A stretch of DNA of 64,000 bases from a bacterium (GTDB lineage Bacteria; AUK180). Position 1 is the first letter of the stretch; each line of letters starts with the position of its first letter. The notes beneath the pieces were generated by a model. That model worked only from the letters and a program-made list of their open reading frames with translations, ran no database searches and had not been told where the DNA came from. Of the stretch, positions 11,526 through 52,665 are shown piece by piece. The DNA is taken from the NCBI GenBank assembly GCA_023144005.1, contig JAGLGN010000020.1, positions 10,941 to 74,940 of the forward strand, written 5' to 3'. Both the position numbers and the translations under genes were made by a program.

Positions 11526-11782
11526 CCTTGGCTAAGGACCGCATTCTTGCTACCGCTCCCGGTATTGATTGTAATTGATTTTTGCTATTATTGCAAGAGG
11601 CTGAGGCGTGCAACATTGCGAGAAATGAATAATTAAAGAGGGTGAGGATTGGGGAAAAAGGGGTGTGTGGAGTGGTAATAGGAGGGGATCCGTGTTCCCA
11701 CATCCACACGCCACATTGTACCATTATTTTTTATAATGTCAAATTATTTGCATGAACCGGCAAATTCTGGCGAATCAATGCG

Positions 11783-11990
11783 AGAATTAGAGGCTAGAGG
11801 CCTATGGAGAAGTGAATAGTGAACAATGAATAGTGAATATTGGGGAGGGGAATAAATACAATTGAAAGTTGACAATTAAAAGATGGAGCACAAAGAAATT
11901 CTTTTCTCAGACGGTTTTCCGGTTACGGATGTGTTTACTTTTCCTTTACACACTTGTGCCTTGTGCACTTGTCACTTGTTTCTTGTTTGC
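11783..11990. repeat. Cluster of intergenic short-period word repeats (GAGGCTAGAGG; TGAATAGTGAACAATGAATAGTGAATA; GGTTTTCCGGTTACGGATGTGTTT; CACTTGTGCCTTGTGCACTTGTCACTTGT)
   Basis: The same modules recur in either orientation at 13234-13269, 19794-19999, 25386-25507, 26270-26360, 34588-34690, 36590-36620, 43269-43288 and 52426-52588. Confidence 0.7.
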
Positions 11991-12012
11991 TATTTTCCCC
12001 ATAGGTGATATA

Positions 12013-13150
12013 ATGCAGAAGGCAATACAAATGAAAATACTCTCATATAAAAATCCTCATAGCTTTCTTAAAGCTTCGGAAGGGATACTCCTTGCTGATG
12101 AAGCTCTGAACAGCTTGATGATCGGCATCACCATGCGCCTTCAGAAAGATCCTTCGGCATATGAGAACCCCTATTTCACATGTGGGATTATTGACGGTAT
12201 CGTGACCACACCTGCATTAATGACCCCTCCTCATCCATTGATACTTGCAGGCAAAGCAGACCCCAAGATACTTTCTGCCATTGCAGAAGATCTATTGGAC
12301 AAAGACAGGAAAGTAAATGGCGTTGTGGCTTCACGGGCTTTATCAGATAGCTTTTCCACGATATGGAAGAAGCGGACGGGATGCAGCATTGTAACATCTA
12401 TGGAACAAGGAGTTTTTCAATTGACTCATCTTAATACGATCAATATATCTCCGGGATCTCTGCGAGTTGCTGAAGAAAAAGACAGGGAACTTTTGAATAG
12501 GTGGGGAAAGAATTTTCAGATCGACATCTACGGCGAAGAAAAAGGAGCCGGACTGGAAGCGAAAAAAATAGTAGATAAAGGGCTGCGGGAGAAAAGGATA
12601 CACCTGTGGACAATTGACGGCAATCTAGGTGATCTAATTCATAAAGACGGTAACAATGGAATGTTTAGATTTGAGTCAATTCCAACGAACAATGAGTGCT
12701 GTGTACCCTTCGTGGTACATAAGCGAAGAGAGAGGAATAAATTGACCAAAGATGATATTCCCTTCGGGCTGAAGCCATTTTTCTGTCTTCTGCGTTGCTC
12801 GTCCCTTACATACCGCTACGGGTATGCGGCGCTCCTCGCGCCTTGAATACGGAACAAAGTAGCATCAGCCATTGTTACCGTATTTATGAATCAGAACACT
12901 TGCATCAATGGCCGCATCGGCGAGGCCCACAATGAACGGCGTAGCGGTGAATTTTGTCTATACCCCGCCGGAATTCCGTAAGAATGGTTACGCCTCTTCC
13001 TGTGTATGGGCATTAAGCAAGAAATTACTACGGTCGGATCATAGTTTTTGTACTCTTTTCACGGATCTTTCAAACCCGACATCGAATGCCATCTATAAGA
13101 ATATCGGTTATCAGCAAATAGACGAATTTGTTATGTACAAATTTCTCTGA
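12013..13150 (+). pseudogene. GNAT-family N-acetyltransferase disrupted by a MITE-like insertion (frameshift)
   Basis: The 5' part (frame 1, MQKAIQMKILSYKNPH... through ...TIDGNLGD) and the 3' part (frame 2, ...NGVAVNFVYTPPEFRKNGYASSCVWALSKKLL, GNAT motif A/B) are separated by a ~269-bp element. That element is bounded by inverted repeats. The ORF-track start at 11869 (TTG) would translate repeat DNA. Confidence 0.5.
12634..12902. mobile_element. MITE-like element with ~26-34 nt terminal inverted repeats (CTAATTCATAAAGACGGTAACAATGG ... CCATTGTTACCGTATTTATGAATCAGAACACTTG) inserted in the GNAT gene
   Basis: The left and right ends are reverse complements (23/26 identical). A second copy of the same ends lies at 52403-52621. 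The stretch translates to a low-complexity, non-protein-like sequence. Confidence 0.5.
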
Positions 13151-13282
13151 ACTAAAACTCTCTTATCTTAGTGTTCCGGGTTCACAAGTTGAGAATATTT
13201 GTTGGAGATCAGAATTCTCTGTGTTATATTTTTAAATTGTCAACTGTCAATTATCCATTGTCAATTTCTCTTTTTCACTTCT

Positions 13283-14188
13283 CTACATCAACATTCCTAC
13301 AGAGAGTCTATGCCAATTAACAATCTCGCCGCCGTAAGAGTAATTGTAGTCCACTTTGATTATTTTACGGCTTTTCAACTTGAAGGTATATCCGAGGCCG
13401 CCATTGAGCTGAATACCTGAATTTATTCCTATTCTGATCATAAGGTTGTCATATACGCAATATTCCGTTCCTGTAAAGAACTTGAAATTCATTCCTTCGT
13501 TCTCATTGACATCATCTTTAATGGAAATATCGATCAGGAAATTACCATTAAACTTGCCTTTTACCTTGTGATATTTATACGCAAAGCCCAACTTATATAT
13601 CTCATCTATTTTTTCATCCTTAACGCCCGCAGCAATGTTCTGGGCCGTTATTCCGAGAAACAGCGGTTTCTTAAAAAGATATCTCCACTGGACACCAATA
13701 TCCATACCGAAGCCGGAACCGCTGCCCACTGTAGAATTAATGCTGAATCCCTTAAGGTTCAAGCCTAGAGCTATTTTTCCCGGGACAAGATACAGGCCAA
13801 ATGACAATCTGTATTCATTCTCGCTGAATGTACTGGTTGCTTCATCAGCACCTTCTGATAATTGGACGGATTTTCTCAACCAGCTCAATCCGATAGAGCT
13901 ATTGAGATTCTTAAAGGATCGCATAACAGCAATATAATCCACAAAATAGTTGCTCAAACCGGGCATTAATTGATGCATCAAAGTATATTCGGTCTTATTC
14001 ATATTCTGGGCTAATCCGGCGGGATTATAATAACCGGCGTAAATGTCATCGGCAAGCCCAACAAACGCTCCCCCCATGCCCTGAACCCTGGCGCCTATGT
14101 TCATATCGATCGATGCTCCGTAGGTACTTGTGACGAATACAAAAGCAAGTATAAGCAAAGTGATTCTCATTACATTTTTAAATTTCAT
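13283..14188 (-). CDS. T9SS-associated outer-membrane beta-barrel protein (PorV/PorP-SprF-like)
   Basis: Signal peptide present. N-terminal motif GARVQGMGGAFVGLADDIYAGYYNPAGLA resembles the conserved start of PorV/PorQ-type barrels. Lies immediately downstream of a giant T9SS-CTD cargo gene, as sprF does with sprB. Confidence 0.45.
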   Translation of the reverse strand: MKFKNVMRITLLILAFVFVTSTYGASIDMNIGARVQGMGGAFVGLADDIYAGYYNPAGLAQNMNKTEYTLMHQLMPGLSNYFVDYIAVMRSFKNLNSSIGLSWLRKSVQLSEGADEATSTFSENEYRLSFGLYLVPGKIALGLNLKGFSINSTVGSGSGFGMDIGVQWRYLFKKPLFLGITAQNIAAGVKDEKIDEIYKLGFAYKYHKVKGKFNGNFLIDISIKDDVNENEGMNFKFFTGTEYCVYDNLMIRIGINSGIQLNGGLGYTFKLKSRKIIKVDYNYSYGGEIVNWHRLSVGMLM

Positions 14189-14199
14189 ATCATTCTCCC

Positions 14200-19548: not shown

Positions 19549-19635
19549 GAGAATATACCTCCTCGTTCATTTAATAATAGTTTTCAGATCATTATAATTT
19601 TTGAAGATTAAATCTGTAAAATAATGTTGTGAATG

Positions 19636-19664
19636 ATAATATTTCATCCCCCCCCTTATGGCAA
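19636..19664 (-). promoter_or_regulatory. Candidate sigma70-type promoter (-35 TTGCCA, 17-nt spacer containing a G8 homopolymer, -10 TATTAT) for the 1782-aa surface protein gene
   Basis: Minus-strand read: TTGCCA-TAAGGGGGGGGATGAAA-TATTAT, ~85 nt upstream of the ATG. A GGAGGT RBS lies 9 nt before the ATG. The poly-G tract spans 19648-19655. Confidence 0.4.
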
Positions 19665-19793
19665 GATTTGTGCCGCAAAGCGAATTGCTTTGATATTGGA
19701 AAAAGTCTAAAACAGCAGAACAGAAATTACATAATTTTACATTATTTTACCTATAAATATATAATATTCGATGGTAAGTTGATAGGATGGTAG

Positions 19794-19999
19794 GTGCACA
19801 AGCGCACAAGCGCACAAGGCACAAGTGTGTAAGGGAAAAGGAAACACATCCGTAACCGGAAAATTGTTTAGGATAAGAATCTCTTTGTGTTCTATCTTTT
19901 AATTGTCAATTGTCCATTGTCAATTATGTTTAGTCCCTTGTCCCTTGAGCCTTGAAACTTGTCCCCTGTCCACTTGTGCCTTGTACCTTGTGCCTTGTC
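19794..19999. repeat. Intergenic word-repeat cluster (GCACAAGC x3; AAACACATCCGTAACCGGAAAA; TTAATTGTCAATTGTCCATTGTCAATT; CCCTTGTCC/CACTTGTGCCTTGT arrays)
   Basis: Tandem 8-bp-period units. Same module family as 11783-11990 and 25386-25507. Confidence 0.7.
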
Positions 20000-21181
20000 T
20001 TACTGTCCATTCTTTGGAATGAAACTATAAGAATTGAATTTCTTATCGACGATCAATCCCTCTTTAGGGATTTCTTTATGCAGGTCATGAGGATAGACAA
20101 CGATATCGTAATCGTCGTATTTGAGTTTTGAAGCCTTCCACATTGAAAAATACGAGTCAAACTGGTTCAGAGCAGCCGGATCACCCCAGTGAATTATCTT
20201 ATTGCCCTGAATTAACACTATCCCAAAAGGCAGCGTCTTTTTCCAAATTCCGTACCCATCACTTACATCTTCATCATCAGAAACGAAGTAGATCGCCTCC
20301 TTGGCAAGGAGGGATAGGTAATACTTAAAGGAATTTCGTTCAGTTCTCGATAGCTTAATAAATTCATTGGTCAGATTCTCGACCGGCTGTGCTTTTTTAA
20401 CAAGCGCGGTGAGAGAATGTATATTTTTCTTATAATCCGCTTTGATCGCATCCAATCCGGTAAATGTAAGAAAACGAACGGGCAAGAGCGGTTTCCCGAC
20501 TAGTCTATCTCCACGCTTTACAAATCTGCATAGCATCTCGAGTCCTCTTGTGAGAAGCGGTATAATAATAGTTCCACCATCCTGTAATTGATCAAACCAT
20601 GGAATGTCAGGAGTAGCACAGGTAACGATTATCGCTTTGTAGGGGGCATAAGGCGAAAATCCCATTCCACCGTCCCCGGTAATAACTGCGATCTCTTTGC
20701 CTGCCCTTTCAAGGTTCTTTTTAGCTATTTCCGCTACTTCACTCTCAATCTCAATGCTCGCGATATTCCCTTCCCCTACGATCTCGGAGATGATCGCCGA
20801 ATTGTATCCGCTTCCGGTACCGATCTCAAGAACATGATCACCTTCTGCGATATCTGCAATATCTATCATGTAGAGGATCAAACATGGCTGAGAACAGGTT
20901 GTCAATAGTTTATTGTCCCTGATCGCGACGACGAGTGCTGAATCAGTGTAGATCGCCTTTAACATTTCCTCATCCGGTGCACTGTAGTTCAACTTAGAGG
21001 AAAACCATTTACCCGTTCCTTCATCATAACTCCATCGGAAAGGAATGAAATCCGCTCTGAATACTCTTGAATACGCCGTTATGGTCGCAGGTTTCAACGC
21101 CTTGTGGCAGATCTCCTGCACTTTCTCTTCTATTTTTACTAATAATTCCTTTTGATAACTCTCGATCATCATCTTAGACAT
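20000..21181 (-). CDS. Protein-L-isoaspartate O-methyltransferase (PCMT)-domain protein with N- and C-terminal extensions
   Basis: Central VLEIGTGSGYNSAIISEIVG (SAM motif I) and ...AIIVTCATPDIPWFDQLQDGG match the PCMT fold. At 393 aa it is roughly 180 aa longer than canonical Pcm. Confidence 0.65.
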   Translation of the reverse strand: MSKMMIESYQKELLVKIEEKVQEICHKALKPATITAYSRVFRADFIPFRWSYDEGTGKWFSSKLNYSAPDEEMLKAIYTDSALVVAIRDNKLLTTCSQPCLILYMIDIADIAEGDHVLEIGTGSGYNSAIISEIVGEGNIASIEIESEVAEIAKKNLERAGKEIAVITGDGGMGFSPYAPYKAIIVTCATPDIPWFDQLQDGGTIIIPLLTRGLEMLCRFVKRGDRLVGKPLLPVRFLTFTGLDAIKADYKKNIHSLTALVKKAQPVENLTNEFIKLSRTERNSFKYYLSLLAKEAIYFVSDDEDVSDGYGIWKKTLPFGIVLIQGNKIIHWGDPAALNQFDSYFSMWKASKLKYDDYDIVVYPHDLHKEIPKEGLIVDKKFNSYSFIPKNGQ

Positions 21182-21437
21182 ATCTTATCCTTCTTGTATC
21201 AAACATGCTTTCTCCTGTCTCTTCTGTACAGGTATTCCGTTTTTCAATGAACTTGGAAATACCGTGATTTGAAAAGACAGCATCGGTATGAGAAAACCTT
21301 CTTTATAGCAGTATGGTACCACACAAAACAAATATTTTCAATTCCTTGACAGTGGTCAAACAGTTGTTTAAATGTTTTATTATTACTTCCATCCCCAATT
21401 TATCACATAAAGGATATTGACCAGGTACCTCATATTA

Positions 21438-22812: not shown

Positions 22813-25359
22813 TCACTTATCATTGCTCATTATTGATTTTAATTTAGCAGCAAGGTCCTGGATCTTGTATGGCTTTGGCAGGAACTCCATAAACCCCAGA
22901 TCTTTGTAATTAGAAATAGCGGGGTCATTTGTATACCCGGTAGAGACTATTGCTTTGACATTAGGATCAATCTCCTGAAGGCGCGTCATAGTTTCTTTAC
23001 CGCCCATGCCGTCGGGGATAGTAAGGTCCAGTATCACCCCATCAAACGGTTCTCCGGCAGAAAGGGATTTCTTATATTCCTCAAGTACTCGTTCACCGTT
23101 ACATGTCATCATGGTTTCATACCCCAGGCGTTTCAACAGACGCGCCAGAAGGTCACGGATAGGTTTTTCATCATCCATAATAAGTATTTTACCTGAACCG
23201 ATGGGAAGTGTGAACTCTTCCTGTATCTGATCCGATTCTGAGAGATTTGAAGCAATGGGAATAATTATTCTGAATTCCGTACCTTCTTCGGGAACGGAAT
23301 CGACCGCGATATACCCGCTATGCCGTCTTATGATGGAAAATGAGGTGGCCAAACCAAGGCCGCTGCCTTTTTGCTTGGTGGTAAAAAACGGATCGAATAC
23401 GCTTTTCAGATGTTCTTTTGAAATTCCATGCCCGCTATCTTTTATTGATATCTGAACATACTCCCCGTCTTTCAGAGGATAAAGTGACTGCAATCCGATC
23501 TCGATATTTGAGATCGCTATTTTAAGTTTTCCGCCTCCCGGCATCGCCTGAATCGAGTTAATGATAATATTATTGATCACCTGATTTATCTGCCCGGGAT
23601 CCACTTCAACATGCAGTATGTCATTTGGAATATCATATTGGCATTTTACTTTCGTTCCTCTCAATACAAAATCAGCCGATTCCCTTACAAGAGCGGTGAT
23701 ATCAGAGCTCTCTTTTACAGGAACGCCACCCTTGGAAAAGGTCAAAAGCTGCTGTGTCAGATTACTTGCATTGAGAATCGCATTATTAGCCTCTTGCAGG
23801 ATATCATAAGAATTATTATCTCTTCCGAGATTCATCTCAACCAATTGGAGATTGCCGAAAATAACCGTTAGGAGATTGTTAAAATCGTGGGCAATACCGC
23901 CGGCCAGGATGCCGAGGGACTCCAATTTCTGCACCTTGAGAAGTTCGGCCTGCATCTTTTTCTCATCTGTGATATCGCTCATAGTTCCTATTATTCCAGA
24001 AGGTTTTCCGTCTTTCCCTTTGATCAATGTATTATGCATCTGCGAGGGGAAAGTACTTCCATCCTTTCTCATATGCCACACTTCACCCATGAATTCACCC
24101 GTATCAAATATCTGTTTATTTGCTTTTTGCACCAGAGGTAATTGCTCTTTTGTGTGAAATATACTCAGGTTTTCTCCATATATATCTTCAGGTTCATAGC
24201 CGTGCATATTGGCAAATGCCCGATTGATATAAATGACATCTCCCTTAAGATCCACAAGGCATAGGCCTTCGTGACTCTGATCAACAGTGGTCTTTAAAAG
24301 GCGGAGCGTCTCCTCCGATACTCGAATATCAGTGATATCAAGTGACACCACTATCATTCCAACAATATCCCCTTTCTCATTCTTCAGTGGTACCTTGTCC
24401 GTTTTCCACCATTTCTTCCCGCTTGGAGTGTCTAACTCCCTGATAATGTTCAATTGGGATTTTCCCGTATTAAGGACCTTCATGTCGCTTTCAAATATTT
24501 CTTTCCCATGATTGGGAAATGTGTCAAAGGGCGTTGAACCTATGAGCTCCTCTTCAGTTTTCCCGATATTCCGGCATAGTGCGCGGTTAACTCTGACGAT
24601 CTTGTCCTCGGTATCCTTGTAAGAGATCATCGTGGGTACGGTGTCAAGAATGTTTTGCAGTTCATCCTTCTGTTGTTTTAACTTCTTCTCGAAACTGTTT
24701 CGGCTTTGAAGGGTTTCGAAGAACCTTAATCCATATCCTATTTCCTCTCCGAGAGCGACCAGAAGGGAGAGCTCCTCCTCATGGAATTTCCCTGTAGCTT
24801 CGGAATAAATATTCAGGGCGCCGAATATTTTATTTGCATATCTTATGGGGATCGCTATAGAAGAACGGAAGCCGCAATTACGGGCCTGTTCGCGCCATAT
24901 ATTGTAAGAATCCCCCTTTTCAATATCCGCTTGAACTACCGGCCTGTTTTCCCTGATCGCTGTTCCAGTCGGGCACATCCCGGATTCCGATTCATCCCAT
25001 GTAATCTTGATTGAAGAAAGGTGCTCTGTATCACAACCGAATTGAACCTCGGGTTCAACGTCCATGCACGGAGGCGGCTTTTTCAGGCCAACCCATGCCA
25101 TTTTATAGTCACCCTGCTCTACAAGGAGACGGCAGATCCCCATAAGGAATTTTTTCCTGCCCTCCATGTTAAGAAGTGTTTTCATGGAAAGGCTCATAAC
25201 CTTCCAGCCCCTGTTTAAGCGGGCCAAACGCCTTTTGAGTTCTTCATTTTCTTTGATAAGCTCCGAGTTGCGGATATCGATATTTTTCTGATTTCCCATT
25301 CGTAATTTTAACACTTTTGCAGTTTTCGTACAAATTTGTTGGAAATTACTTGTAAACAC
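22813..25359 (-). CDS. Hybrid sensor histidine kinase (GAF + PAS domains, HisKA, HATPase_c, C-terminal receiver domain)
   Basis: HisKA region AGGIAHDFNNLLTVIFGNLQL with the phospho-accepting His. HATPase motifs follow (GGKLKI..., DSGHGI, GSGLGL). The C-terminal REC has KILIMDDE...DLTIPDGMGG. The N-terminal region has GAF/PAS features. Confidence 0.8.
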   Translation of the reverse strand: MFTSNFQQICTKTAKVLKLRMGNQKNIDIRNSELIKENEELKRRLARLNRGWKVMSLSMKTLLNMEGRKKFLMGICRLLVEQGDYKMAWVGLKKPPPCMDVEPEVQFGCDTEHLSSIKITWDESESGMCPTGTAIRENRPVVQADIEKGDSYNIWREQARNCGFRSSIAIPIRYANKIFGALNIYSEATGKFHEEELSLLVALGEEIGYGLRFFETLQSRNSFEKKLKQQKDELQNILDTVPTMISYKDTEDKIVRVNRALCRNIGKTEEELIGSTPFDTFPNHGKEIFESDMKVLNTGKSQLNIIRELDTPSGKKWWKTDKVPLKNEKGDIVGMIVVSLDITDIRVSEETLRLLKTTVDQSHEGLCLVDLKGDVIYINRAFANMHGYEPEDIYGENLSIFHTKEQLPLVQKANKQIFDTGEFMGEVWHMRKDGSTFPSQMHNTLIKGKDGKPSGIIGTMSDITDEKKMQAELLKVQKLESLGILAGGIAHDFNNLLTVIFGNLQLVEMNLGRDNNSYDILQEANNAILNASNLTQQLLTFSKGGVPVKESSDITALVRESADFVLRGTKVKCQYDIPNDILHVEVDPGQINQVINNIIINSIQAMPGGGKLKIAISNIEIGLQSLYPLKDGEYVQISIKDSGHGISKEHLKSVFDPFFTTKQKGSGLGLATSFSIIRRHSGYIAVDSVPEEGTEFRIIIPIASNLSESDQIQEEFTLPIGSGKILIMDDEKPIRDLLARLLKRLGYETMMTCNGERVLEEYKKSLSAGEPFDGVILDLTIPDGMGGKETMTRLQEIDPNVKAIVSTGYTNDPAISNYKDLGFMEFLPKPYKIQDLAAKLKSIMSNDK

Positions 25360-25385
25360 TTAAGAATCTTTTTGAATTCTAATTT

Positions 25386-25507
25386 TTAATTGTCAATTTC
25401 TCTATAATCACTGCGAAGCGTCATTCTTCATTGTATTTTCCCACTTTACACTTCACACTTTCTTTTACACTTGTCCCTTGTACACTTGTGCCTTGTGCCT
25501 TGTGTTC
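25386..25507. repeat. Intergenic word-repeat cluster (TTAATTGTCAATTTC; CACTGCGAAGCGTC; TGTATTTTCCCACTTTACACTTCACAC; CACTTGTCCCTTGTACACTTGTGCCTTGTGCCTTGTG)
   Basis: A 40-nt core (TGTATTTTCCCACTTTACACTTCACAC) is shared with 26295-26340. Both lie in upstream regions of minus-strand genes. Confidence 0.7.
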
Positions 25508-26196
25508 TACTTTGCTTTCTCTACAATAGTACTATAGTATTCCAAGCCCCATACATAAGAGTATTCAATGATCTGATTAATGATCTTCTGTGCTTCGCCG
25601 TCCAATTCCTTGCTGAATTTCTCATTCGGTTTAGGGTTTGCATCACTGATCACGACCTGCAAGTAATATGTTTCCATCGATTGCCCCCGTTCATCAAGCG
25701 CTAAACTCGCCGAGCCTTTTCTGAGTCCTTGGAACGGCAAATAGCCTTCAGCCTTAACACCTACGGATATGACTATATTTGTCTTGTCGTCTTTTTTGAA
25801 ATAATACGGCCCAAGAGAGCGTGTATTGCGGATCTTATATCCGTTCTTGCATGCCCATAAATAAAAGCTGCGCTCAATTATCGTAGCTAAATGTTCAACA
25901 TGATCTAGTTTCTTTGCTTTTATTTCGGCAATTTCGATCTTTGCTTCGGCTACTATGGAAGAAAGATTCCATTTCTTTGTTTGATACTTAATTACCAGCG
26001 CCTCGGCTTCCTGCTTGGCTGTACTGTCATGTATGCAGGGGTCTTCAATAAGCGGTACCTTTCCGCCATGCCTAAGCTCGATGTATTCAACATCAGCTTC
26101 CGGTTTGACATTCTCCGCATTCAGATAAACCAAAGTGCTTACAAGTAGTAAGAGCACACTTAATTTCAACGCTGCAAGTAATACGCTTTTCTTCAT
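25507..26196 (-). CDS. Hypothetical secreted protein
   Basis: Signal peptide MKKSVLLAALKLSVLLLLVS. No recognisable domain. Confidence 0.4.
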   Translation of the reverse strand: MKKSVLLAALKLSVLLLLVSTLVYLNAENVKPEADVEYIELRHGGKVPLIEDPCIHDSTAKQEAEALVIKYQTKKWNLSSIVAEAKIEIAEIKAKKLDHVEHLATIIERSFYLWACKNGYKIRNTRSLGPYYFKKDDKTNIVISVGVKAEGYLPFQGLRKGSASLALDERGQSMETYYLQVVISDANPKPNEKFSKELDGEAQKIINQIIEYSYVWGLEYYSTIVEKAK

Positions 26197-26269
26197 AACA
26201 ACCTCCTGTAATTAAAATATAGTTATCTCATTCCTCTTTTTCTCTTCTCTAATTCTTCATTTCTTAATT

Positions 26270-26360
26270 CTTCATTGTTCATTATTCATTGTTCATTGTT
26301 CACTGTATTTTCCCACTTTACACTTCACACTTCACACCTCACACTTTCTTCTGCACCTGT
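26270..26360. repeat. Intergenic word-repeat cluster (TTCATTGTTCA x4 tandem; CACTTCACAC x3 tandem)
   Basis: Period-8 tandem units. TTCATTGTTCATT is the reverse complement of the AATGAACAATGAA module at 11811-11841. Confidence 0.7.
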
Positions 26361-29300
26361 CTACTTGAGTATAACACACTTACCCTGGATCTGCTCGCCT
26401 GCTTCGTCGGTAATAATGTATATATATACCCCTGAAACGACCTTTTTTCCTCTGCGTGTCCTAAGGTCCCAGGTGTGATCGATCAATTCCGGCTGCATTT
26501 TAATTACAAATTCTCCTGAAATACTGTATATCGCAATACTTGAATTCTCAGTGAGATTGGCAAATGTGATATGTTCAATACCCATATTGCTGCTCCACGG
26601 AACGGGATAAACCACGACATCGCCAAGGCCTTGAGCATAATTGTTCACCGCATCAAAATCCTGTACCTGGCTTATCGTCAGGTCAATGAACTGAGCCGTC
26701 TCCGGAGTATATTTATAAAGCCCTACTTCAGGAGTAACCGTATATGTCGCGCCTGCATCAAGGTCCGTAAACAAGTAATATCCTGAAATATCAGTATAAA
26801 CTTCCGTTGTGGAAGCACCCGTAAGAACAACCTTGATATCCGCCAAAGGAGTTATCCCTGACATAATATTTCCGCTTATCGACCATGAATTCAATGTTCC
26901 GGTGAAGTCCACATCAGAAACATTCGCACTCAAAACAGTACAATTGGTATTTGCGGGGCTGAATTCATAATGCGTATGCGAAGGCGTGACCGTATAATCT
27001 TTGCCCGCATCAAGACCGGCAAAGGAATAATTACCGCTGCCGTCAGTCGTCGTTGATGCTGTCGCATAACCGCTCAGATCCACGGTAGCACCGCTTATCG
27101 GATTTGTGCCGTCGGTGATGTTCCCTGAGATATCCCATGTATTCAGAGTTCCCGTAAAATCAGAGCTCGAGATATCCGAGCTGATATTATTATACGAATT
27201 GCTGGGAGCCGCAAAGGTGTAATGCGTCATTGACGGTGTAACCGCAAAGTCCTCACCCGCATTCAAACCGGCAAAGGAATAGTTCCCACTGCCGTCTGTC
27301 GTAGTTGTAGCAGAGGCATAGCCGCTCAGATCGACCGTAACACCGCTTATCGGGTTCGCGCCATCTGTTATCGTGCCTGAAATGGTCCATGTATTCAATA
27401 TGGCAGTGAAATCAGTTGAGGTTTCATCCGCGCTCAAATCTGTATGCTCTGTACTTGTAGGAGCAAAGGAATAATGCGTGAGTGATGGAGTAACGGTATA
27501 ATCTCCGCCAGCGTCAAGGCCGGCAAAGGAATAATTGCCGCTGCCGTCGGTAACAGCAAAGGTAGTCGCTGAGCCGGTGAGATCCACGGTGACACCAGAA
27601 AGCGGGGTAGCCCCATTAGTAATGGTGCCCGAGATATCCCAGGTTTTCAATGTACCGGTAAAATCATTTCCGGTATCATTCGCGCTGAGATCCAGGATCG
27701 AAATATTCACGGGAGCAAATATATAATGCGTATGAGATGGTGTCATGGTATAATCACCACCTGCGTCAAGATCGGCAAAGGAATAATTACCGCTGCCGTC
27801 AGTAACAGTCGTGGCGGTAGCCGAGCCAGAAAGGTCGACTGTAACGCCGCTTATCGGGTTAGTGCCGTCGGTGATCGTCCCAGAAATGTCCCATGTATCG
27901 ATCGTCCCTGTGAAATCGGTATTGTTGCGATCGCCTCCCAAATTAAAATGGGTGGTCCCTGAAGGTACGAACATGTAGTGTGTGTATGACGGTGTAACCG
28001 TATATGTCGCTCCCGCGTCAAGCCCGGCAAAGGAATAATTACCGCTGCCGTCGGTCGTAGTTGATGCTGACACATAACCGCTCAGATCGACCGTAACTCC
28101 GCTTAACGGATCAGTGCCGTCTGTGATCGTGCCTGATACATCCCATGTATTAAGAGTTCCAGTGAAATCGGTCGCGGTTTCATCCGCGCTAAGATCGGTA
28201 TATGTGGTACTTATAGGAGCGAATGTATAATGCGTGAGTGACGGCGTGACCGTATAATCACCGCCCGCATCAAGCCCGGCAAAGGAATAATTACCGCTGC
28301 CGTCAGTTGTCGTTGTAGCAGTTGCCGAACCCGAAAGATCGACAGTAACTCCGCTTAACGGATTAGCGCCGTCCGTGATCGTTCCCGAGATATCCCATGT
28401 ATTAAGGGTTCCTGTAAAATCAACTGATGTCTGATCGCTGTCCAATGAAGCGATATCCGTAAATGACGGTGAGAACGAATAATGTGTAAATGATGGGGTG
28501 ACAGTATAGCTTTCACCATGAGGGACATCCGCGAACGAATAATTTCCGCTGCCATCAGTAACGGTGGAAGCCGAACTGTATCCGCTCAGATCAACCGTAA
28601 CTCCAGCCATCGGAACTGCACCATCGGTTATCGTGCCCGAGATGGTGTGCGGAAGAGATTTTGTGATTACATCAAGCTCATCCGAAGCATCCCTTGAAAG
28701 AGGGATGCAATTCTTGGCTACGACCAAGTAAAAATATCCTGTCGCGGGTGTCAAGCCAGAGTCAGCAAATGTCAAAGCATTGGTATCCGAAGCGAGCAGA
28801 GTCGCAGTAATAGTATCCACCGGCGTCGTGCCGCTTCTGTAAAGATCGTATATAACCTCTTCTATCGTCTGCTGGGCATCTGTTGCCGCATCCCAGACAA
28901 TAGTTATCGCATTGTAAGTAACAACAGTCGAATCTATATTAGAAATACCTGAAACAGCCCAGTCTGGTGCGGTTGTATCCGCAGGATCACATGCAGGCAA
29001 AGTTGCAATCGCTAGCTCGTCCGATGCCTCCCTTTCAAGCGGCACACAATTGCGTACGACAACTTTATAATAATATGTCGTCTCCATTGTCAGTCCCGTA
29101 TCCAGATATGTATTTGCTTCAGTATCTTCAACTATCGGTGTCAATGAACTTGTGTCAGAAATTGTAACGGTATCTCTGTACAGATCATAGGTAAGAGGCA
29201 ATGTGTCGTTCTCAAGATCAGAGGCCGCATCCCATTCCAAGTCAATAGATGTGTGGGATATTGCCGTTGAACAGATATTCGAGACCCCTGAAACTGTCCA

Positions 29301-34532: not shown

Positions 34533-34539
34533 CTCAATT

Positions 34540-34568
34540 AGTTTATCTTATTTGAATTAATATATCAA
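34540..34568 (-). promoter_or_regulatory. Candidate sigma70-type promoter for the 2723-aa gene (-35 TTGATA, 17-nt spacer, -10 TAAACT)
   Basis: Minus-strand read immediately upstream of the GAGGTG RBS and the ATG at 34526. Confidence 0.3.
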
Positions 34569-34773
34569 TACCGATTAAGCAAAAAGAAGTTCCAGGTTCA
34601 AAGGTTCACAAGTGTTAACGTATGATGTGTAGCGTGTCAAGTGAAATGTAATAAATATTCACACCCGTAACCGGAAAATCGTTATTTCGTTTCTTTCATT
34701 AAAATCACCCGTTATAATAATAGAACGCCGGAGCGAAGTAAGATGTGGGACACGCCGTACTCCGCAGGAGTTC

Positions 34774-34913
34774 GACTGTCCCGATGTAAAAGTTCCAAGC
34801 AAAGAGTTGACAGGAAGCGAAGCGTGTAAACTCTTTGCCCCGTTAGAATCAAACGGAAACATTCTCCACACATCTTTGAATGTTATCCCCTTTCTCTTTA
34901 GTCATTCCCGTGC
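34774..34913. repeat. ~125-bp conserved intergenic element, copy A (contains 10-bp inverted repeat GCAAAGAGTT...AACTCTTTGC)
   Basis: About 90% identical to copy B at 36661-36779 (GACTGTCCC...CCAAGCAAAGAGTTGACAGGAAGCG[A/T]AGCGTGTAAACTCTTTGCCCCGTTAGAATCA...TTGAATGT..CATTCCCGTG). Copy A carries a 16-nt indel. Confidence 0.6.
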
Positions 34914-34990
34914 AGTTTACCCCGATTACATCGGGGATCGGGAATCCATCTTACTCCACCTTTCAACTTTTGAACTTTTGAACATTCTTT

Positions 34991-35863: not shown

Positions 35864-36501
35864 TTAACTCCTGACAGTATCACAAAGATCTCCTGCAATC
35901 GTTCTTGGCCTTTGTAGGATTTTCCGGTAATCTTATCGTAGATCGTGTACTCGCGTTTTATATTCTGACCACCCTCGAAACTCACAGTATCCACGCTTGA
36001 AAGTGTAAACGCTACAAAAATAGTTTCGTCATACATAAATAATCGGATCTCCACTTCTTTCCCAAGTGCGTTGATCTCGCAGGGAATGAGGAATTCAAAA
36101 ACAACTCGATCACCCTGATAATATGCAGTGAAATCCTTTGCTTTCTTGAACTTGAAAAATTCTCCGTTAATGTATATATATGTGTAACAGTCGTATTGCT
36201 GGATGTTTTTAAAGATACTGCTTTTGATCTCCGCGATCTCCTTTTTTTCAAATTGCGAATTCTTGTTCGTGTCAAAGTCGTCGCTGACCGTGATACTGAA
36301 GAATTCGTCAAAGACCCATTTTACTTTTATGCCTGTAAGTCCGGCCTCATCAAAAACGAAATGAGCCGAATAGTCGATGAAGAGATGCGGGTGAGAAGAA
36401 GGGAGTAATTTTGCGGACAGGAAGAAGAGGAGCACAAGGGGCAATATGATAATTACCCTTTTGAAATTTGCGTACTTTAACAAGGCATGAAAGATTTTCA
36501 T
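35860..36501 (-). CDS. DUF1007-family periplasmic component (COG3683) partnered with the NicO-like permease
   Basis: Signal peptide. 213 aa. Conserved operonic pairing with COG2215 permeases. A candidate promoter (TTGGAC-17-TAAAAT) ends 7 nt before the ATG, so the transcript may be leaderless. Confidence 0.5.
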   Translation of the reverse strand: MKIFHALLKYANFKRVIIILPLVLLFFLSAKLLPSSHPHLFIDYSAHFVFDEAGLTGIKVKWVFDEFFSITVSDDFDTNKNSQFEKKEIAEIKSSIFKNIQQYDCYTYIYINGEFFKFKKAKDFTAYYQGDRVVFEFLIPCEINALGKEVEIRLFMYDETIFVAFTLSSVDTVSFEGGQNIKREYTIYDKITGKSYKGQERLQEIFVILSGVK

Positions 36502-36660
36502 TTGTTGTATTTTACATCATTTACCGGAATTGTCCAAATATGGGACAAGCTTCGCAGTGCACCAGTGGACCCAGGGACAAGTGTCCCAGTAGTGAAGGAA
36601 AAGAGAAACACACCCGTAACACAAGAAAAGAGGGACATGCCGTCGACAACTTATTGGCAC

Positions 36661-36779
36661 GACTGTCCCGGATAAAGGTACCAAGCAAAGAGTTGACAGG
36701 AAGCGTAGCGTGTAAACTCTTTGCCCCGTTAGAATCACACGGGAACATCCTCCACACATATTTGAATGTCATTCCCGTG
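36661..36779. repeat. ~125-bp conserved intergenic element, copy B
   Basis: See copy A at 34774-34913. Located ~160-280 nt upstream of the DUF1007/NicO operon start. Confidence 0.6.
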
Positions 36780-36865
36780 AAAGAGGAAATTCATCCCTCT
36801 CTACCTTGTGTTTTTGTTTCTTGTGCACTGCGAAGCATACCCACCTCGCACATCACACATTTGAC

Positions 36866-38227
36866 TTATTTAAGAAGCTCCTTTATTAGGCCTTTGACTT
36901 CCGGACTGGCGTTCTTTTTCAATTTGATAGTACCGGAGGTTTCTATTCGTGATGTCTCGACATCCACTATCTTTGCCCGTATATAATACATATTGTTTAT
37001 TAATGATATCTTGCCGATGACCATCTTGTTCACGGCAAGTATTTTACCTACTTCTACCGCGCATTCGGCTGAAACACAACCGGTTTTCTGAAACTCGACT
37101 TCATCCATTATCACTTTTAACGCGCTTCTTTCTATTACGGTGTATTTGCCGGTATCAAGGAGTTCGTCGCTGATCATATCCTCTATTACATCGCTGTAAC
37201 TTTCCGGAACCTCAGGTGCCTCAAATTCCATTATGGCGATCGAGATCATCTTTTTCGGTACTTCCTCTGCAAAAGATCTCTTTTTCTCCTTTTTGGGTTT
37301 TGATACATATTTTCTTTCAGGCATTGAAAAATCAAGGCCTGCTGAAATAAAGTGAAACCCTGTGAGATCTCCCATAGCAAAGGTATAGTCCACTTGATAG
37401 TTAGCATACATTACTCCAATACCAGCGCTTAAGCCCGAAGCCAGCTCATTTCTGTCAAGCTGATAGGCAGCACGCAGGGAAATGATATTATTAATGATGT
37501 ATTCCGCTCCAAGGCCGAATTTCATCGGTGAATCCGCCGGACCCAGGAAATATGTGCCAGCGGCGTTTATCTTCAGCGTACCGTCCAGAAAGTCCTTGCC
37601 CACACTGAGTCCAAGCCGTCCCGGCGTCATTGAGTCATCCCCTGAAGAGATAGCAATGATATCATTCAATGATAATCCCACCTTGAGAATGTCAAGTGCA
37701 TACTCCATTCCCATGGAGAGGTAGGCATAGGAGAACTTCTCCTCCGCAATATCCCCTGTTTCGGGTAATGTCTGGGACAATAATGAAAAACTGATCCCGG
37801 CCGTAAGCGCCGGCATGATCTTTCTTACATATCCCGCTCTTATTATGCTATCTCCGGTAAGAGAAGCGTTTTCATCGAGGATCTCTCCAAATTCATCTAC
37901 CGCGATATAATCAGGATTCGCGATCATCTGATAAGAGACAAAAGCGAAATTGTCCTCTCCAATGGTCATTGCAAGTGAAGTCTGATTATGAGCCCTGCCG
38001 CTGAATACACCGGGGAAATATGAAAATCTCAACGAGAACTGATCTTTGATCCTCGCGGCAGAGGCACAATTAAAGCTCAGATAAGCCAAGGGCCTGTCTG
38101 AAGTTATCCCGCCCGGAAGCGCGAGCGTCAAGCCGTCAACGGGAGTGAACATTTCGGAATACCCGAGATCACCTGCGGAAGCGAATACGCATAGAATAAC
38201 GGCACATGATAATATCATCCGCTTCAT
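36866..38227 (-). CDS. Outer-membrane protein: N-terminal predicted beta-barrel plus a C-terminal ~120-aa periplasmic alpha/beta module (CsgG/LpoB/TolB-N-like)
   Basis: Signal peptide. A K-rich linker (KPKKEKKRSF) follows the barrel. The C-terminal module has ISIAIMEFEA...GCVSAECAVEVGKILAVNKMVIGKI. Lies downstream of the LVIVD T9SS cargo gene. Confidence 0.4.
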   Translation of the reverse strand: MKRMILSCAVILCVFASAGDLGYSEMFTPVDGLTLALPGGITSDRPLAYLSFNCASAARIKDQFSLRFSYFPGVFSGRAHNQTSLAMTIGEDNFAFVSYQMIANPDYIAVDEFGEILDENASLTGDSIIRAGYVRKIMPALTAGISFSLLSQTLPETGDIAEEKFSYAYLSMGMEYALDILKVGLSLNDIIAISSGDDSMTPGRLGLSVGKDFLDGTLKINAAGTYFLGPADSPMKFGLGAEYIINNIISLRAAYQLDRNELASGLSAGIGVMYANYQVDYTFAMGDLTGFHFISAGLDFSMPERKYVSKPKKEKKRSFAEEVPKKMISIAIMEFEAPEVPESYSDVIEDMISDELLDTGKYTVIERSALKVIMDEVEFQKTGCVSAECAVEVGKILAVNKMVIGKISLINNMYYIRAKIVDVETSRIETSGTIKLKKNASPEVKGLIKELLK

Positions 38228-41939: not shown

Positions 41940-42050
41940 AACGGGCAAAGAAAAATATAGAGTTTGAGGTTAGTGCTGAGAAGAGATAAGACCCGATCCC
42001 TTGTTCCACTGGTCCCCTGTCCCCTGCGAAGCGTAACCTGCGAACTTCTT

Positions 42051-42761: not shown

Positions 42762-42834
42762 TCATATACCTTTCTTTTCTTTAGTGTACTGTTTCATCGT
42801 AGCATATTTAATCAGGATTTTCAAAGAGCGGGGC

Positions 42835-42863
42835 TTGACAAAGGACCAATAATCCGCTATCAT
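42835..42863 (+). promoter_or_regulatory. Candidate sigma70-type promoter (-35 TTGACA, 17-nt spacer, -10 TATCAT) for ORF 42901..43263
   Basis: An AAGGGAG RBS lies 7 nt before the ATG. Confidence 0.35.
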
Positions 42864-42900
42864 GTTAGTGAACATTAACTAACATTCAAGGGAGTGCTTT

Positions 42901-43263
42901 ATGGAATACACAAAATGGTCTATCAAAGAAGAAGACCTCAAAGATCTGACACTAATAGATGCTAGGAATCTCATCATCATTTGCTTTTACGAGGCCCAGA
43001 AAGAGTCGATCGCTTCAACTAAAAAAGACATGAACAGCAAGATCAATGACGGAGAAATGTATAACTCGGTATTGGCAAGAGTGAGATTCGCTTCGAAGCA
43101 ATGCGGAGGCGATTGGGAAAACCCCTCATTGGAATATCTTCTTAATATAGTGAAGTACCTTGAAAACAGTGCTTCTGCTGCAGGAACCCCTGATGACATC
43201 GTCGCTCATCATAAAAACCAGATTCTTAAAGTCCTTGAAGCATGCGATAAGCAGTGCGGCTAA
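42901..43263 (+). CDS. Hypothetical cytoplasmic protein (120 aa)
   Basis: ORF with a good RBS and an upstream promoter-like sequence. No recognisable domain. Confidence 0.4.
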   Translation: MEYTKWSIKEEDLKDLTLIDARNLIIICFYEAQKESIASTKKDMNSKINDGEMYNSVLARVRFASKQCGGDWENPSLEYLLNIVKYLENSASAAGTPDDIVAHHKNQILKVLEACDKQCG

Positions 43264-43287
43264 AGGAAAGAGGCTAGAGGTTAGAGG

Positions 43288-43815
43288 TTAATTCAGAGGG
43301 GAATATTTTTTATCGAGATAAATTGAGATGTGATTGCCTTCTATATCCCCATTTATTGTATGTATATCAACCTCTTCACCGCCATAAACAAATGCTTCAA
43401 TGATCCCGTCTTTGTCAGTATATACCTGGAAATAGGCGTATGCCATCAGAGTATTTCTACCATTATGTGTGATGGCTTCTTTTCCAATGCTCTCTTTTAT
43501 TTCATCCAAATCTCCTTCGTTTGCATGAACCCCCGCAAAGTAAGAGAGTTTTGAGCCATCGGTAAAATTTACGACAAGCTCAGGTTCGCCCCACTTTTCC
43601 GGCAGTGATTTCAATTCCTTCCCAGCCTCAAGGTCGCCATAGTGTCGATTTCGATATCTTTGAAGTTTAGTTCCAATTATTCTGGGATCCGTAAGATTAT
43701 TGTAGACTAGGAACCACACATATAACAATGGCACCGAAATTATTAAGCAAACAACAAGAAGACCGCTATCAAATTTCCGCTGTTTTCTCTTTCCGTTTTC
43801 CATATTATCGTTCAT
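43288..43815 (-). CDS. Hypothetical membrane-anchored protein (single N-terminal TM)
   Basis: ORF of 175 aa with the hydrophobic segment LLVVCLIISVPLLYVWFLVY. Confidence 0.35.
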   Translation of the reverse strand: MNDNMENGKRKQRKFDSGLLVVCLIISVPLLYVWFLVYNNLTDPRIIGTKLQRYRNRHYGDLEAGKELKSLPEKWGEPELVVNFTDGSKLSYFAGVHANEGDLDEIKESIGKEAITHNGRNTLMAYAYFQVYTDKDGIIEAFVYGGEEVDIHTINGDIEGNHISIYLDKKYSPLN

Positions 43816-43869
43816 ATTATTTTCCGTTTCCCCACTTATCCTTTGTCCCCTCTTAGTTCTTCCTTTTCT

Positions 43870-45057: not shown

Positions 45058-45218
45058 TGCTCCTTCTTATATGACTGTAACACTTTGCTCCAAGATATAC
45101 AAATATTACCGATGACGCAATCCAAGCACAAAGGTCCAGCTCTGCATATCCGATCCCCCTCTCAATCCATCATCCTATTATCCATTCCCACACCTCACAC
45201 TTCACCCTTTATTTTCCA

Positions 45219-45566: not shown

Positions 45567-45600
45567 AGTTTTTCTCCTTATTATCAGTTATCAGTTATCA

Positions 45601-45716
45601 GGGACGTTGGTGAAGAGTGTGAAGAGTTTGAAGGTATTCAGAAAACAATATCCCCATAATTCCTATACTTATATAATATGGACTAAGCCAACTCTTCACA
45701 CTCTTCACCACCGTCC
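45601..45716. repeat. MITE-/REP-like element: 27-bp near-perfect inverted repeat (GGACG[T/G]TGGTGAAGAGTGTGAAGAGTT) around a ~60-nt loop
   Basis: Arms at 45601-45628 and 45690-45716 differ by 1 mismatch. Sits between the PP-loop gene stop and the cupin gene start. A 15/17-nt direct copy of the arm end (TTCTTCACCACCGTCCC) lies at 46784-46800, at the other end of the PP-loop gene. Confidence 0.55.
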
Positions 45717-52347: not shown

Positions 52348-52363
52348 ATGTTTCCCACGTTAT

Positions 52364-52392
52364 ATTATGCAGAATAATGGGCAAAAAGTCAA
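52364..52392 (-). promoter_or_regulatory. Candidate sigma70-type promoter for the PII-led operon (-35 TTGACT, 17-nt spacer, -10 CATAAT)
   Basis: Minus-strand read ending ~16 nt upstream of the ATG at 52347. Confidence 0.4.
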
Positions 52393-52402
52393 ATATTAAC
52401 CT

Positions 52403-52621
52403 AGTGTTCTGATTCATGAAATAGAGGCTAGAGGTTCGAGGTTGGTGAAGGGAAGATTGTTCAAAAGTTCAAGGTTAAGGTAAAATCTCTTTTTACTCTA
52501 TCTTATAATTGTCAACTGTCAATTGTGTATAATCATCCTTTAGTTTCCCACTTGTCACTTGTGCTCTTGTCACTTGTGCTCCTATCAACCATTGTCATCG
52601 TATTTATGAATCAAAACACTG
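52403..52621. mobile_element. MITE-like element (second copy of the TIR family that disrupts the GNAT gene), with internal word-repeat modules
   Basis: Ends AGTGTTCTGATTCATGAAATA (52403-52423) and CCATTGTCATCGTATTTATGAATCAAAACACTG (52589-52621) are inverted and match the ends of the 12634-12902 element. Sits precisely between two divergent predicted promoters. Confidence 0.45.
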
Positions 52622-52630
52622 TTAAAAAAC

Positions 52631-52659
52631 TTGAAAAAAAGTTGAAAATGGTATAAAAT
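52631..52659 (+). promoter_or_regulatory. Candidate sigma70-type promoter for the 3138-aa TPR gene (-35 TTGAAA, 17-nt spacer, -10 TAAAAT), possibly giving a leaderless transcript
   Basis: The -10 ends 6 nt before the ATG at 52666 and no SD sequence is present. Confidence 0.3.
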
Positions 52660-52665
52660 TCCTTT

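Follow-up and report, generated by a model that had tools for sequence, protein, structure and literature searches.

Heptameric simple sequence repeats (SSRs) form, according to the work of Mrazek et al. (2007) as summarized in PMC4679880 and PMC4692102, the most over-represented class of long SSRs in many bacterial genomes, and slippage tied to the 7-nt footprint of the polymerase was proposed for this excess, as the first of these summaries reports (PMC4679880). Here, we describe a dense set of such repeats in the intergenic DNA of a bacterium of the GTDB lineage AUK180, studied in a stretch of 64,000 nucleotides that we call the window (assembly GCA_023144005.1, contig JAGLGN010000020.1, positions 10,941 to 74,940 of the forward strand). 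These arrays share every testable defining feature of the heptameric intergenic SSR class. Like the short tandemly repeated repetitive (STRR) sequences of Calothrix, Nostoc, and Anabaena and the GGGAATC and GGGGAYT repeats, they consist of head-to-tail 7-nt units placed between genes at many dispersed loci, and the host in this case is a member of an uncultured candidate phylum. Our favored reading is that they are the inverted arms of an old family of mosaic elements.

In Xanthomonas and Nostoc, the heptamers GGGAATC and GGGGAYT, respectively, lie within 0 to 50 bp of open reading frames (ORFs), where they occupy the non-coding strand if upstream and the coding strand if downstream; they overlap stop codons at times, often form convergent plus/minus pairs, and vary in length between related species (Rehm et al. 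2015, PMC4692102). The arrays described here follow the same orientation rule, sit just as tightly against ORF ends, form convergent inverted pairs, and differ in length between relatives. However, the Xanthomonas and Nostoc genomes use one or a few words, whereas dozens of words per genome occur here; the blocks have a fixed order and are tied to a 19-nt core and to hairpin bodies, and the words are A/G-rich without G-runs and have no G-quadruplex potential. Another heptamer, TAACTGA, is found in marine Beggiatoaceae, some Cyanobacteria, and some Bacteroidetes, typically in 2 to 6 copies and in up to 43 in some Bacteroidetes and Cyanobacteria; it clusters immediately upstream of start codons, with a role in translation proposed for it (MacGregor 2015, PMC4679880). 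TAACTGA likewise forms intergenic tandem repeats at many loci with no theme among the neighboring genes, but it is a single word, while our arrays use many words and are equally placed at starts and stops in mirror orientation.

Two further kinds of intergenic DNA are relevant. The first comprises mosaics such as the bacterial interspersed mosaic elements (BIMEs), repetitive extragenic palindromic (REP) sequences, and REP doublets forming hairpins (REPINs) of enterobacteria and Pseudomonas, the Neisseria intergenic mosaic elements (NIMEs) and Correia elements of Neisseria, and the MITEs (miniature inverted-repeat transposable elements). The units described below resemble them in organization: they are also small, non-coding, intergenic, multi-copy, and modular, with palindromic units in both orientations and nested or partial copies, and a true unit bounded by terminal inverted repeats (TIRs) is present among them. 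Unlike those mosaics, their arms are tandem heptad arrays and not unique sequence, and no REP-associated tyrosine transposase (RAYT) or other transposase was found in the window or in the sampled loci. The second kind comprises iterated protein-binding sites, among them the 8-bp metboxes of MetJ. The parS site of plasmid pSM19035 consists of contiguous heptads, at least four in direct or inverted orientation, bound by the ribbon-helix-helix (RHH) protein omega/ParB (PMC9499535). Our arrays are likewise built of contiguous, spacer-free 7-bp units, four or more per site, direct and inverted. The plasmid sites, however, rely on one conserved word found at a few promoters of a single plasmid, and their cognate protein is known, whereas the words here vary freely and the arrays are genome-wide and fast-evolving.

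Heptad arrays in the intergenic DNA of the window

Tandem arrays were listed with Tandem Repeats Finder (TRF), and self-matches were scanned at periods 3 to 12 with a criterion of at least 15 matches out of 21 at a given lag. TRF returned period-7 arrays at 11811-11839, 11951-11979, 19901-19925, 19933-19999 (9.4 copies), 25438-25460, 25470-25504, 26245-26346 (three overlapping rows), 42012-42026, 43269-43290, 45581-45601, and 52549-52577. Its list further included arrays with a period of 8 (19796-19825 and 34961-34983) and of 9 (45610-45633 and 45691-45708). In the lag-match scan, period 7 covered 476 of 4411 intergenic bases (10.8%) but only 22 of 59589 coding bases (0.04%), and each of the other periods covered at most 1.8% of the intergenic DNA. 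When the intergenic segments were shuffled, the 430 nt observed compared with 2.7 +/- 9 nt in 200 mononucleotide shuffles (maximum 48) and with 8.5 +/- 16 nt in 50 dinucleotide-preserving shuffles (maximum 69). The autocorrelation of all non-coding DNA of the window peaked at lags 7, 14, and 21, while coding DNA showed period 3 only. The median array was 41 nt long, or about 6 units.

An earlier note on this DNA had described short-period word repeats in its intergenic regions. These repeats are real by TRF, lag scan, and shuffles, with period 7 dominant and periods 8 and 9 minor, and the words are far from equally common in coding sequence: the 11 modules named there matched 31 times in the intergenic DNA (4.66 kb) and 3 times in the coding DNA (59.3 kb). 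Their extent was overstated. Many intergenic regions carry arrays, but "nearly every" does not hold, since only 8 of the 18 non-coding segments of at least 40 nt passed the strict period-7 test (one of them being a MITE inside a GNAT gene), four further segments had weaker or 8- to 9-nt arrays, and six had none (1-420, 6483-6821, 21182-21437, 42762-42900, 43816-43869, and 63895-64000). The region upstream of the rnf core (6483-6821) is indeed free of arrays, as had been said, but this contrast rests on one or two regions. The range from 11.5 to 52.7 kb is just where the intergenic DNA of the window sits.

Architecture of the element

Comparison of the window with related loci, many of them from metagenome-assembled genomes (MAGs), revealed the anatomy of the repeats. 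A full element is composed of two inverted arms about a unique center, and many copies are half, truncated, or nested. An arm consists of a single long and degenerate period-7 array (skeleton nnnnnAA; period 8 or 9 in places), whose richer strand is 71% purine at the median (152 arrays). This purine-rich strand runs 5' to 3' toward the center of the element. Among 818 heptad units put in register, only positions 6 and 7 were informative, with A in 86% and 72% of the units, and the other five positions carried 0.2 to 0.5 bit each. About 40 distinct exact heptamer words occur per genome. How one word passes into another can be followed in the arm at 26245-26352, where a single 7-nt phase is held over 13 consecutive units as AGTGTGA drifts to AGTGGGA, AAATACA, GTGAACA, and ATGAACA and then to ATGAAGA. 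Modules that had been listed separately are thus segments of a single long, degenerate heptad array.

The blocks of an arm follow one another in a regular order. On the purine strand, the outer part reads (AGAGGYT)n, (GTTCAAAR)n, and GGTTAYGCTTCGCAG, and the inner part contains one of (GCACAAG), (GGACCCA), or (GATAGGKT)n, then (GTGTGAA) or (GTACGAR)n, and then the core. The GGTTAYGCTTCGCAG block, which is the CTGCGAAGCGT of the earlier note, always has GTTCAAAR 8-mers as its outer neighbor and heptads as its inner neighbor. With the order defined post hoc from the data themselves, 135 block transitions ran forward and 12 backward, and no block of the same orientation followed the core. The modules, once described as shuffled, are thus strongly directional.

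The core is a conserved 19-nt sequence, CACAYCCGTAACCGGAAAA, with the reverse complement TTTTCCGGTTACGGATGTG. We put 85 core copies in one orientation. To the left of the core there was almost always a purine-rich heptad array whose word varied by copy (GTGTGAA, GTACGAG/GTACGAA, GCACAAG, GAACAAT, GGACAAT, GAAGAAT, GATAGGTT, GGACCCA, or AGAGGTT), and to the right there was one of two bodies, short (S) or long (L). For the S body, TYGTTTRAGATAAGAATCTCTTTGT...CTTTTAATTGTCAAYTGTCAATTGTCCATTGTCAATT, the window has one copy at 19864-19925 and a reversed one at 11858-11914. The L body is about 220 nt long and starts at the core; one copy occupies 34657-34890, part of another lies at 36626-36790, and at least 26 copies were found in the loci of relatives (for example, L018, L058, and L003). 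It contains two hairpins, with compensatory changes at three base pairs, and carries a TACAAT/TATAAT-like box; the sequence 3' of it is variable. The L body had no match in Rfam; possible identities are a non-coding RNA gene present in many copies and the structured part of a mobile element. In one related locus (L062:33-263), a core with L body stands 38 nt downstream of a tRNA-Pro/tRNA-Arg pair, and this copy may be an insertion beside tRNA genes.

REP-like palindromes make up a further component. The palindromes GTCATTCCCG...CGGGAATCC (window 34893-34948) and GTCATTCTGAAG...GAAGAATCC (loci L012, L055, L067, and L069) occupy the center of units, with a purine arm on one side and a pyrimidine arm on the other, and palindrome halves CTGCGAAGCG...CGCTTCGCAG occur at arm ends. 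In an informal comparison, no resemblance in sequence to known REP families was seen. In four copies, a purine arm, a REP-like hairpin, and a pyrimidine arm are nested together in the loop of the first L-body hairpin.

Distribution among relatives and other genomes

Searching 185,579 species genomes, we found the core CACAYCCGTAACCGGAAAA in multiple copies in only two, JAGLWT01 (MAG RS_12.bin.30) and JAIVYW01, the latter labeled Candidatus Atribacteria by its submitter; the remaining matches, about 14, were single and due to chance. RS_12.bin.30 comes from a South China Sea cold seep, Site-F; this genome of 3.1 Mb with 42% GC and 96.6% completeness is classified in the GTDB phylum UBP15 (PMC9357000 supplement). 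Its locus L053 is syntenic with window positions 23029-30831 at about 93% identity, and contigs encoding proteins identical to those of the window come from the same cold-seep metagenomes and from GCA_030671845.1. In JGI metagenome contigs, all 16 matches to the core 19-mer were chance matches inside genes. A metagenome search with a 229-aa protein flanked by arrays returned no relatives; only six homologues of it were found, all on contigs of at most 2.6 kb, which were of no use for synteny. Of the proteins used to look past the window ends, one has no entry on record, and the contigs of the other stop within 2 kb.

The arrays themselves also extend beyond the window. Period 7 covered 10.0% and 7.9% of the non-ORF DNA in the loci of the two related MAGs, compared with 0.55% in 15 unrelated genomes that the same core search had picked up, and period 8 came second in the loci of both MAGs (2.9 to 4.7%). 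In their intergenic regions that lack the core, arrays still covered 5.8% and 3.8%, and 14 of 49 and 7 of 37 such regions carried one (about 20 to 30%). Four IMG/VR viral contigs contain (GTGTGAA)n arrays, which means that this word is not unique to the lineage, while the composite is. Two unrelated viral contigs have long intergenic arrays: at L102:1335-1358, (GTGTGAA)6 is followed by (GGGTGAA)9, with a short inverted copy just before a gene start, and at L103:8169-8192, (GTGTGAA)4 is followed by (GGTTCAAG)8.

Orientation, promoters, and folding

The arrays are strongly oriented with respect to genes. In the left half of intergenic regions, the plus strand was purine-rich in 36 arrays and pyrimidine-rich in 12, compared with 8 and 39, respectively, in the right half (odds ratio 14.6, Fisher p = 1.2e-8). 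The purine strand pointed 5' to 3' away from the nearest gene in 34 cases and toward it in 7 at start codons, and in 41 and 13 cases, respectively, at stop codons. Between co-directional genes, the purine strand was sense in 25 arrays and antisense in 26; the purine-sense arrays lay near the upstream stop codon (median 50 nt), and the purine-antisense arrays lay nearer the downstream start codon (median 112 nt). The same orientation at starts and stops points to a mirror-symmetric property of the DNA and not to a strand-specific transcript, promoter, or RNA signal. Arrays often reach the stop codon of a gene or even supply it, as at 19999/20000, 25504/25507, and 43269-43290.

A special relation to promoters, which had been suggested by arrays lying just upstream of -35 elements, was not confirmed. 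Only the array at 11951-11986 directly abuts a predicted -35 element, and stop and start codons are equally favored. In 19549-19999, the best predicted promoters are at least 130 nt downstream of the arrays, and the predicted promoter sites at 13236-13264 face the 3' end of a convergent gene. We also considered (TTGACAA)n as stacked -35 boxes and rejected it, as no adequate -10 element occurs at the right spacing.

Single arms are unstructured, with a minimum free energy (MFE) of -6 to -11 kcal/mol per about 150 nt and z-scores between -0.9 and +1.8, whereas regions with complementary arms fold strongly (19780-20000, z = -4.2; 45567-45716, z = -7.4). Since single arms are unstructured and no array contains an intrinsic-terminator-like site, we rejected the idea that the arrays in general are hairpins or terminators. 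None of 152 arrays had four runs of G3+ or C3+ and thus G-quadruplex potential. Rfam gave no match at the gathering threshold in the whole window and none at E <= 1 in 34400-37000 and 6400-6900, and a tRNA scan of the window found no tRNA genes.

Change between relatives

Within the species, the arrays are identical in five independent assemblies and are therefore not hypervariable contingency loci. Between species, they change in steps near the unit length. Relative to the window, L053 has a TTCACAC unit more (+7 nt), and its CTTGTNC array is 15 nt (7+8) shorter; it carries a (CCACTGGG)n block in place of the AATTGTC/S-body block and a composite of about 190 bp, made of an end module, (GCACAAG)n, the core, the S body, and (AATTGTC)n, which is absent from the window at 26215/26216. 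Between JAIVYW and JAGLWT, an orthologous (GTACGAR)n array (L066, L058) differs by exactly 21 nt, or three heptads, and the body variant switches downstream of the shared core. Over six syntenic pairs, with only 340 array columns, the arrays had 73.0% identity and 21.5% gap columns, other intergenic DNA had 81.5% and 13.5%, and ORFs had 91.8% and 0.9%. The arrays are thus the fastest-evolving sequence class.

One unit of the same repeat system has the structure of a MITE. It measures 271 bp (12629-12899), has 31-nt TIRs at 90% complementarity, folds with z = -7.3, and is represented in the related loci by 14 near-full copies among 45 BLAST matches. This MITE splits a GNAT gene (12013-13150). 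Its removal in silico restored a stop-free ORF of 288 aa with a Pfam GNAT domain across the junction, and the joined ORF aligned over about 90 to 100% of its length with the full-length GNAT homologues listed, out of more than 1000 matches. Only the interrupted version of the gene is in the database, and no empty orthologous site was found there. As a result of the split, the ORF list shows a misleading 325-aa TTG-started ORF (11869-12846) that crosses the heptad arm at 11937-11997. TIRs of the MITE type also appear to bound the composite at 52404-52619, where only the first 14 of 26 positions of the left end match, and most other array-bearing regions have no recognizable TIR pair. With the exception of a spurious ORF inside the MITE, no ORF was multi-copy in the related loci.

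Origin of the arrays

According to the above-described analysis, we consider it fairly probable that these STRR-like heptad microsatellites make up the inverted arms of non-autonomous mosaic elements, an old and lineage-specific family resembling MITEs, BIMEs, and NIMEs. Slipped-strand mispairing would lengthen and shorten the arrays by about 7 nt at a time, and a new word would come from a point mutation that is then amplified locally. The elements would have spread, mostly long ago, by transposition or recombination and would persist where insertion is tolerated, which may be why arrays abut gene ends. They would then be largely selfish or neutral and not dedicated regulator sites. A lineage-specific repeat-generating mechanism, one of two explanations offered by the earlier note, fits the multi-copy core in 2 of 185,579 genomes, the changes by approximately whole units, and the turnover of modules.

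Several points weigh against this reading. Slippage alone explains neither the inward direction of the purine strand nor the retention of the AA skeleton, features that could reflect a constraint, and the identity of five assemblies shows that there is no rapid slippage on the population time scale. The unit-step indels are few cases and, having no outgroup, are unpolarized. No transposase, RAYT, or other mobilizing gene was found in the window or in the approximately 420 kb of related loci, and the flanks of the 14 MITE copies, several of which are themselves repeats, showed no consistent target-site duplication. L-body copies have a mean identity of 82 to 85% within and between genomes (maximum 97%), which indicates that most of the spreading is old, and current mobility is not shown. 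Additionally, the related loci were retrieved through the core motif and are biased toward repeat-rich DNA, a bias that the recount on intergenic regions without the core offsets only in part.

The other explanation offered by the earlier note was iterated binding sites for one DNA-binding protein family. In this reading, the arrays would be contiguous 7-bp sites of a heptad-reading protein that loads at the center and covers both arms symmetrically, such as an RHH protein akin to omega/ParB of pSM19035, a nucleoid-associated protein, or the transposase of the elements themselves. Runs of at least four contiguous heptads are a proven protein-binding architecture (pSM19035 parS, PMC9499535), and the median array here, at 41 nt and about 6 units, is of that kind, with arms inverted about a center, a phase kept over 13 units, and AA at fixed positions. 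The common word TTCACAC/GTGTGAA also appears to resemble the omega heptad, WATCACW. However, a single binder hardly agrees with about 40 words per genome that share only AA, with five of seven positions nearly uninformative, with periods 8 and 9 mixed among period 7, or with arrays being less conserved than any other sequence class. The arrays show no preference for promoters, their neighbor genes are functionally unrelated, and Pfam scans of the window show no RHH protein, other candidate binder, or partition gene. We therefore regard this explanation as unlikely; a protein recognizing just the period of 7 bp or the AA skeleton would still be compatible with the data.

A role of the arrays as an RNA signal in the transcripts of the flanking genes appears very doubtful. 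Arrays between co-directional genes with no strong promoter between them (26197-26360 and 25360-25506) are probably transcribed, such a role has been proposed for another heptamer (MacGregor 2015, PMC4679880), and the two complementary-arm regions could form long hairpins (z = -4.2 and z = -7.4). But the symmetric orientation means that transcripts would carry purine words after stops and pyrimidine words before starts, and sense and antisense arrays are balanced (25:26) between co-directional genes. Single arms, moreover, are unstructured, contain no terminator-like site, and have no Rfam matches.

We give little credence to the possibility that an element-linked reverse transcriptase or polymerase laid down the arrays by re-copying a 7- to 8-nt template in the manner of telomerase, instead of by replication slippage. 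It would account for a period of 7 (or 8) kept across dozens of unrelated words, for arrays that always point one way relative to the element center, and for their position next to hairpins, some of whose arms resemble the words (GAACGAG followed by GTACGAG units). However, no such enzyme was seen in the sampled DNA, the same geometry is found in Xanthomonas and Nostoc with no enzyme implicated there, and the copy number changes at orthologous sites that do not move.

Chance, low-complexity composition, or assembly artefact can practically be dismissed, for although public contigs of the species often stop at arrays, which are thus hard to assemble, 430 nt were observed where shuffles gave about 3 to 9 nt, five independent assemblies carry identical arrays, and the same families recur in two further MAGs from different studies.

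Features of the window and neighboring genes

The repeat-derived features of the window are collected in Table 1.

Table 1. Arms, cores, bodies, and related repeat units in the window, with positions counted from its first nucleotide
Feature	Position	Strand	Remarks
Purine-rich arm, GAGGCTA/GAGGCCT then (AGTGAAT/AGTGAAC) x4	11783..11843	+	70% purine
S body and core TTTTCCGGTTACGGATGTG	11858..11936	-	
Pyrimidine-rich arm (+ strand), (CACTTGTG/CTTGTNC)n	11937..11997	-	Ends at predicted -35 of GNAT gene
271-bp MITE with 31-nt TIRs, in GNAT gene	12629..12899	.	No heptads; same repeat system
GTTCCGGGTTCACAAGT module, right half of S body, and (AATTGTC)n arm	13173..13267	-	Abuts stop codon at 13283
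Purine-rich arm, GATAGGKT-type 8-mers then (GCACAAGC) x3.9	19757..19825	+	
Spacer GTGTAAGGGAAAAGGAAA and core CACATCCGTAACCGGAAAA	19826..19863	+	
S body (TTGTTTAGGATAAGAATCTCTTTGTGTTCTATCTTTT) then (AATTGTC) x3.6	19864..19925	+	
Pyrimidine-rich arm (+ strand), 9.4 degenerate heptads (GTCCCTT/CTTGTGC)	19933..19999	-	Reaches stop codon 20000; complementary to 19796-19825
Single arm: S-body fragment, AATTGTCAATT, CTGCGAAGCGT, TTCATTG, ATTTTCCCAC, (TTCACAC)n, (CTTGTNC)n	25363..25506	-	To stop codon 25507
Single arm, about 14 heptads, TTCATTG drifting to TTCACAC	26245..26352	-	Abuts stop codon 26361
GTTCCAGGTTCAAAGGTTCACAAG, outer-arm module of 8-mer type	34588..34612	+	
Core and L body, two hairpins	34657..34890	+	
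REP-like palindrome GTCATTCCCG...CGGGAATCC with inner CCCCGAT/ATCGGGG stem, then 8-mer arm CAACTTTT/GAACTTTT	34893..34985	-	
L-body fragment joined to AGCTTCGCAG, (GTGCACCA/GTGGACCCA/GGGACAA) arm, degenerate core	36540..36625	+	
3' part of second L body, pyrimidine-rich arm with CTGCGAAGC	36626..36860	+	L-body part 89-91% identical to locus copies
Pyrimidine-rich arm (CCCTTGT, GTCCCCT x2) and terminal module CTGCGAAGCGTAACCTGCGAACTT	41995..42047	-	Abuts stop codon 42051
(AGAGGTT) x3	43258..43291	+	Fills 24-nt gap of two convergent genes and supplies stop codon
Pyrimidine-rich arm (CCACACCTCACACTTCACC)	45150..45216	-	Abuts stop codon 45219
(TTATCAG) x3, then inverted 9-mer arms GTGAAGAGT x2.7 and ACTCTTCAC x2	45581..45711	.	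Stem of about 20 bp possible
216-bp composite with MITE-type TIR bounds (left end partial, weakly matched)	52404..52619	.	Order: GTGTTCTGATTCATGAAATA, purine arm (GAGGYTN x3, then GTTCAAAA/GTTCAAGG), half S body with (AATTGTC)n, (CACTTGT)n arm, ...TATTTATGAATCAAAACAC

The genes next to the arrays include those for a GNAT enzyme, an unassigned 301-aa protein, a PCMT methyltransferase, a hybrid histidine kinase, NicO, a CsgG-like protein, a DNA alkylation repair enzyme, a cupin, a P-II protein, a 3138-aa TPR protein, and large surface proteins with FlgD-Ig, CarboxypepD_reg, or LVIVD domains. We found no common functional theme among these flanking genes. Two of the ORFs are exceptionally long: one of 2723 aa (26361-34532) is predicted to be secreted and contains Endonuclease I, clostripain, and CarboxypepD_reg domains, and the one of 3138 aa (52666-62082) consists of TPR repeats almost throughout. 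The former encloses a 252-nt tandem repeat (26967-28421; 5.8 copies, 68% identity), whose units are protein-domain repeats unrelated to the heptads.

Three observations concern single regions or contigs. Built of 9-mers (GTGAAGAGT x2 and ACTCTTCAC x2; 45607-45711), an inverted repeat that is perfect over about 20 bp brackets a 58-nt AT-rich loop with a TATAAT-like sequence upstream of the cupin gene, and it may occlude a promoter or form a cruciform. The array-free region upstream of the rnf operon (6483-6821) folds much better than its shuffles (z = -4.4) and may contain an undescribed leader or regulatory RNA. Among public contigs of the same species, several (L080, L081, L084, and L085) end in or beside heptad arrays, and the repeats thus fragment short-read assemblies of this organism.

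Significance

The excess of heptamers in bacterial intergenic DNA has been recognized since 1990 and 2007, and we know of no accepted mechanism or function for it. Heptameric intergenic repeats are a known class, of which the arrays described here are a dense new example in a UBP15-related cold-seep bacterium; to our knowledge, the repertoire of intergenic repeats has not been described before for any member of that candidate phylum. The case is unusually dense and diverse, with about 10% of the non-coding DNA of the window in arrays and dozens of words. On the practical side, these arrays break metagenome assemblies of this organism and create spurious ORF extensions, such as the 325-aa ORF from 11869. 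Because the orientation rule holds here without any G-quadruplex potential, an explanation of it by G-quadruplexes cannot be general, and attention turns to the period of 7 nt, the asymmetry between strands, and the architecture of inverted arms. We would finally raise, as a rather improbable idea, that the inverted heptad arms are the working ends of an as yet undescribed mobile or chromosome-organizing element. On these arms, either a protein that reads no word but the 7-bp period and the AA skeleton would polymerize outward in both directions from the hairpin or core, or a polymerase linked to the element would deposit the heptads by reiterative copying. If this were true, the system could explain why intergenic repeats of bacteria prefer 7 nt and point away from genes.

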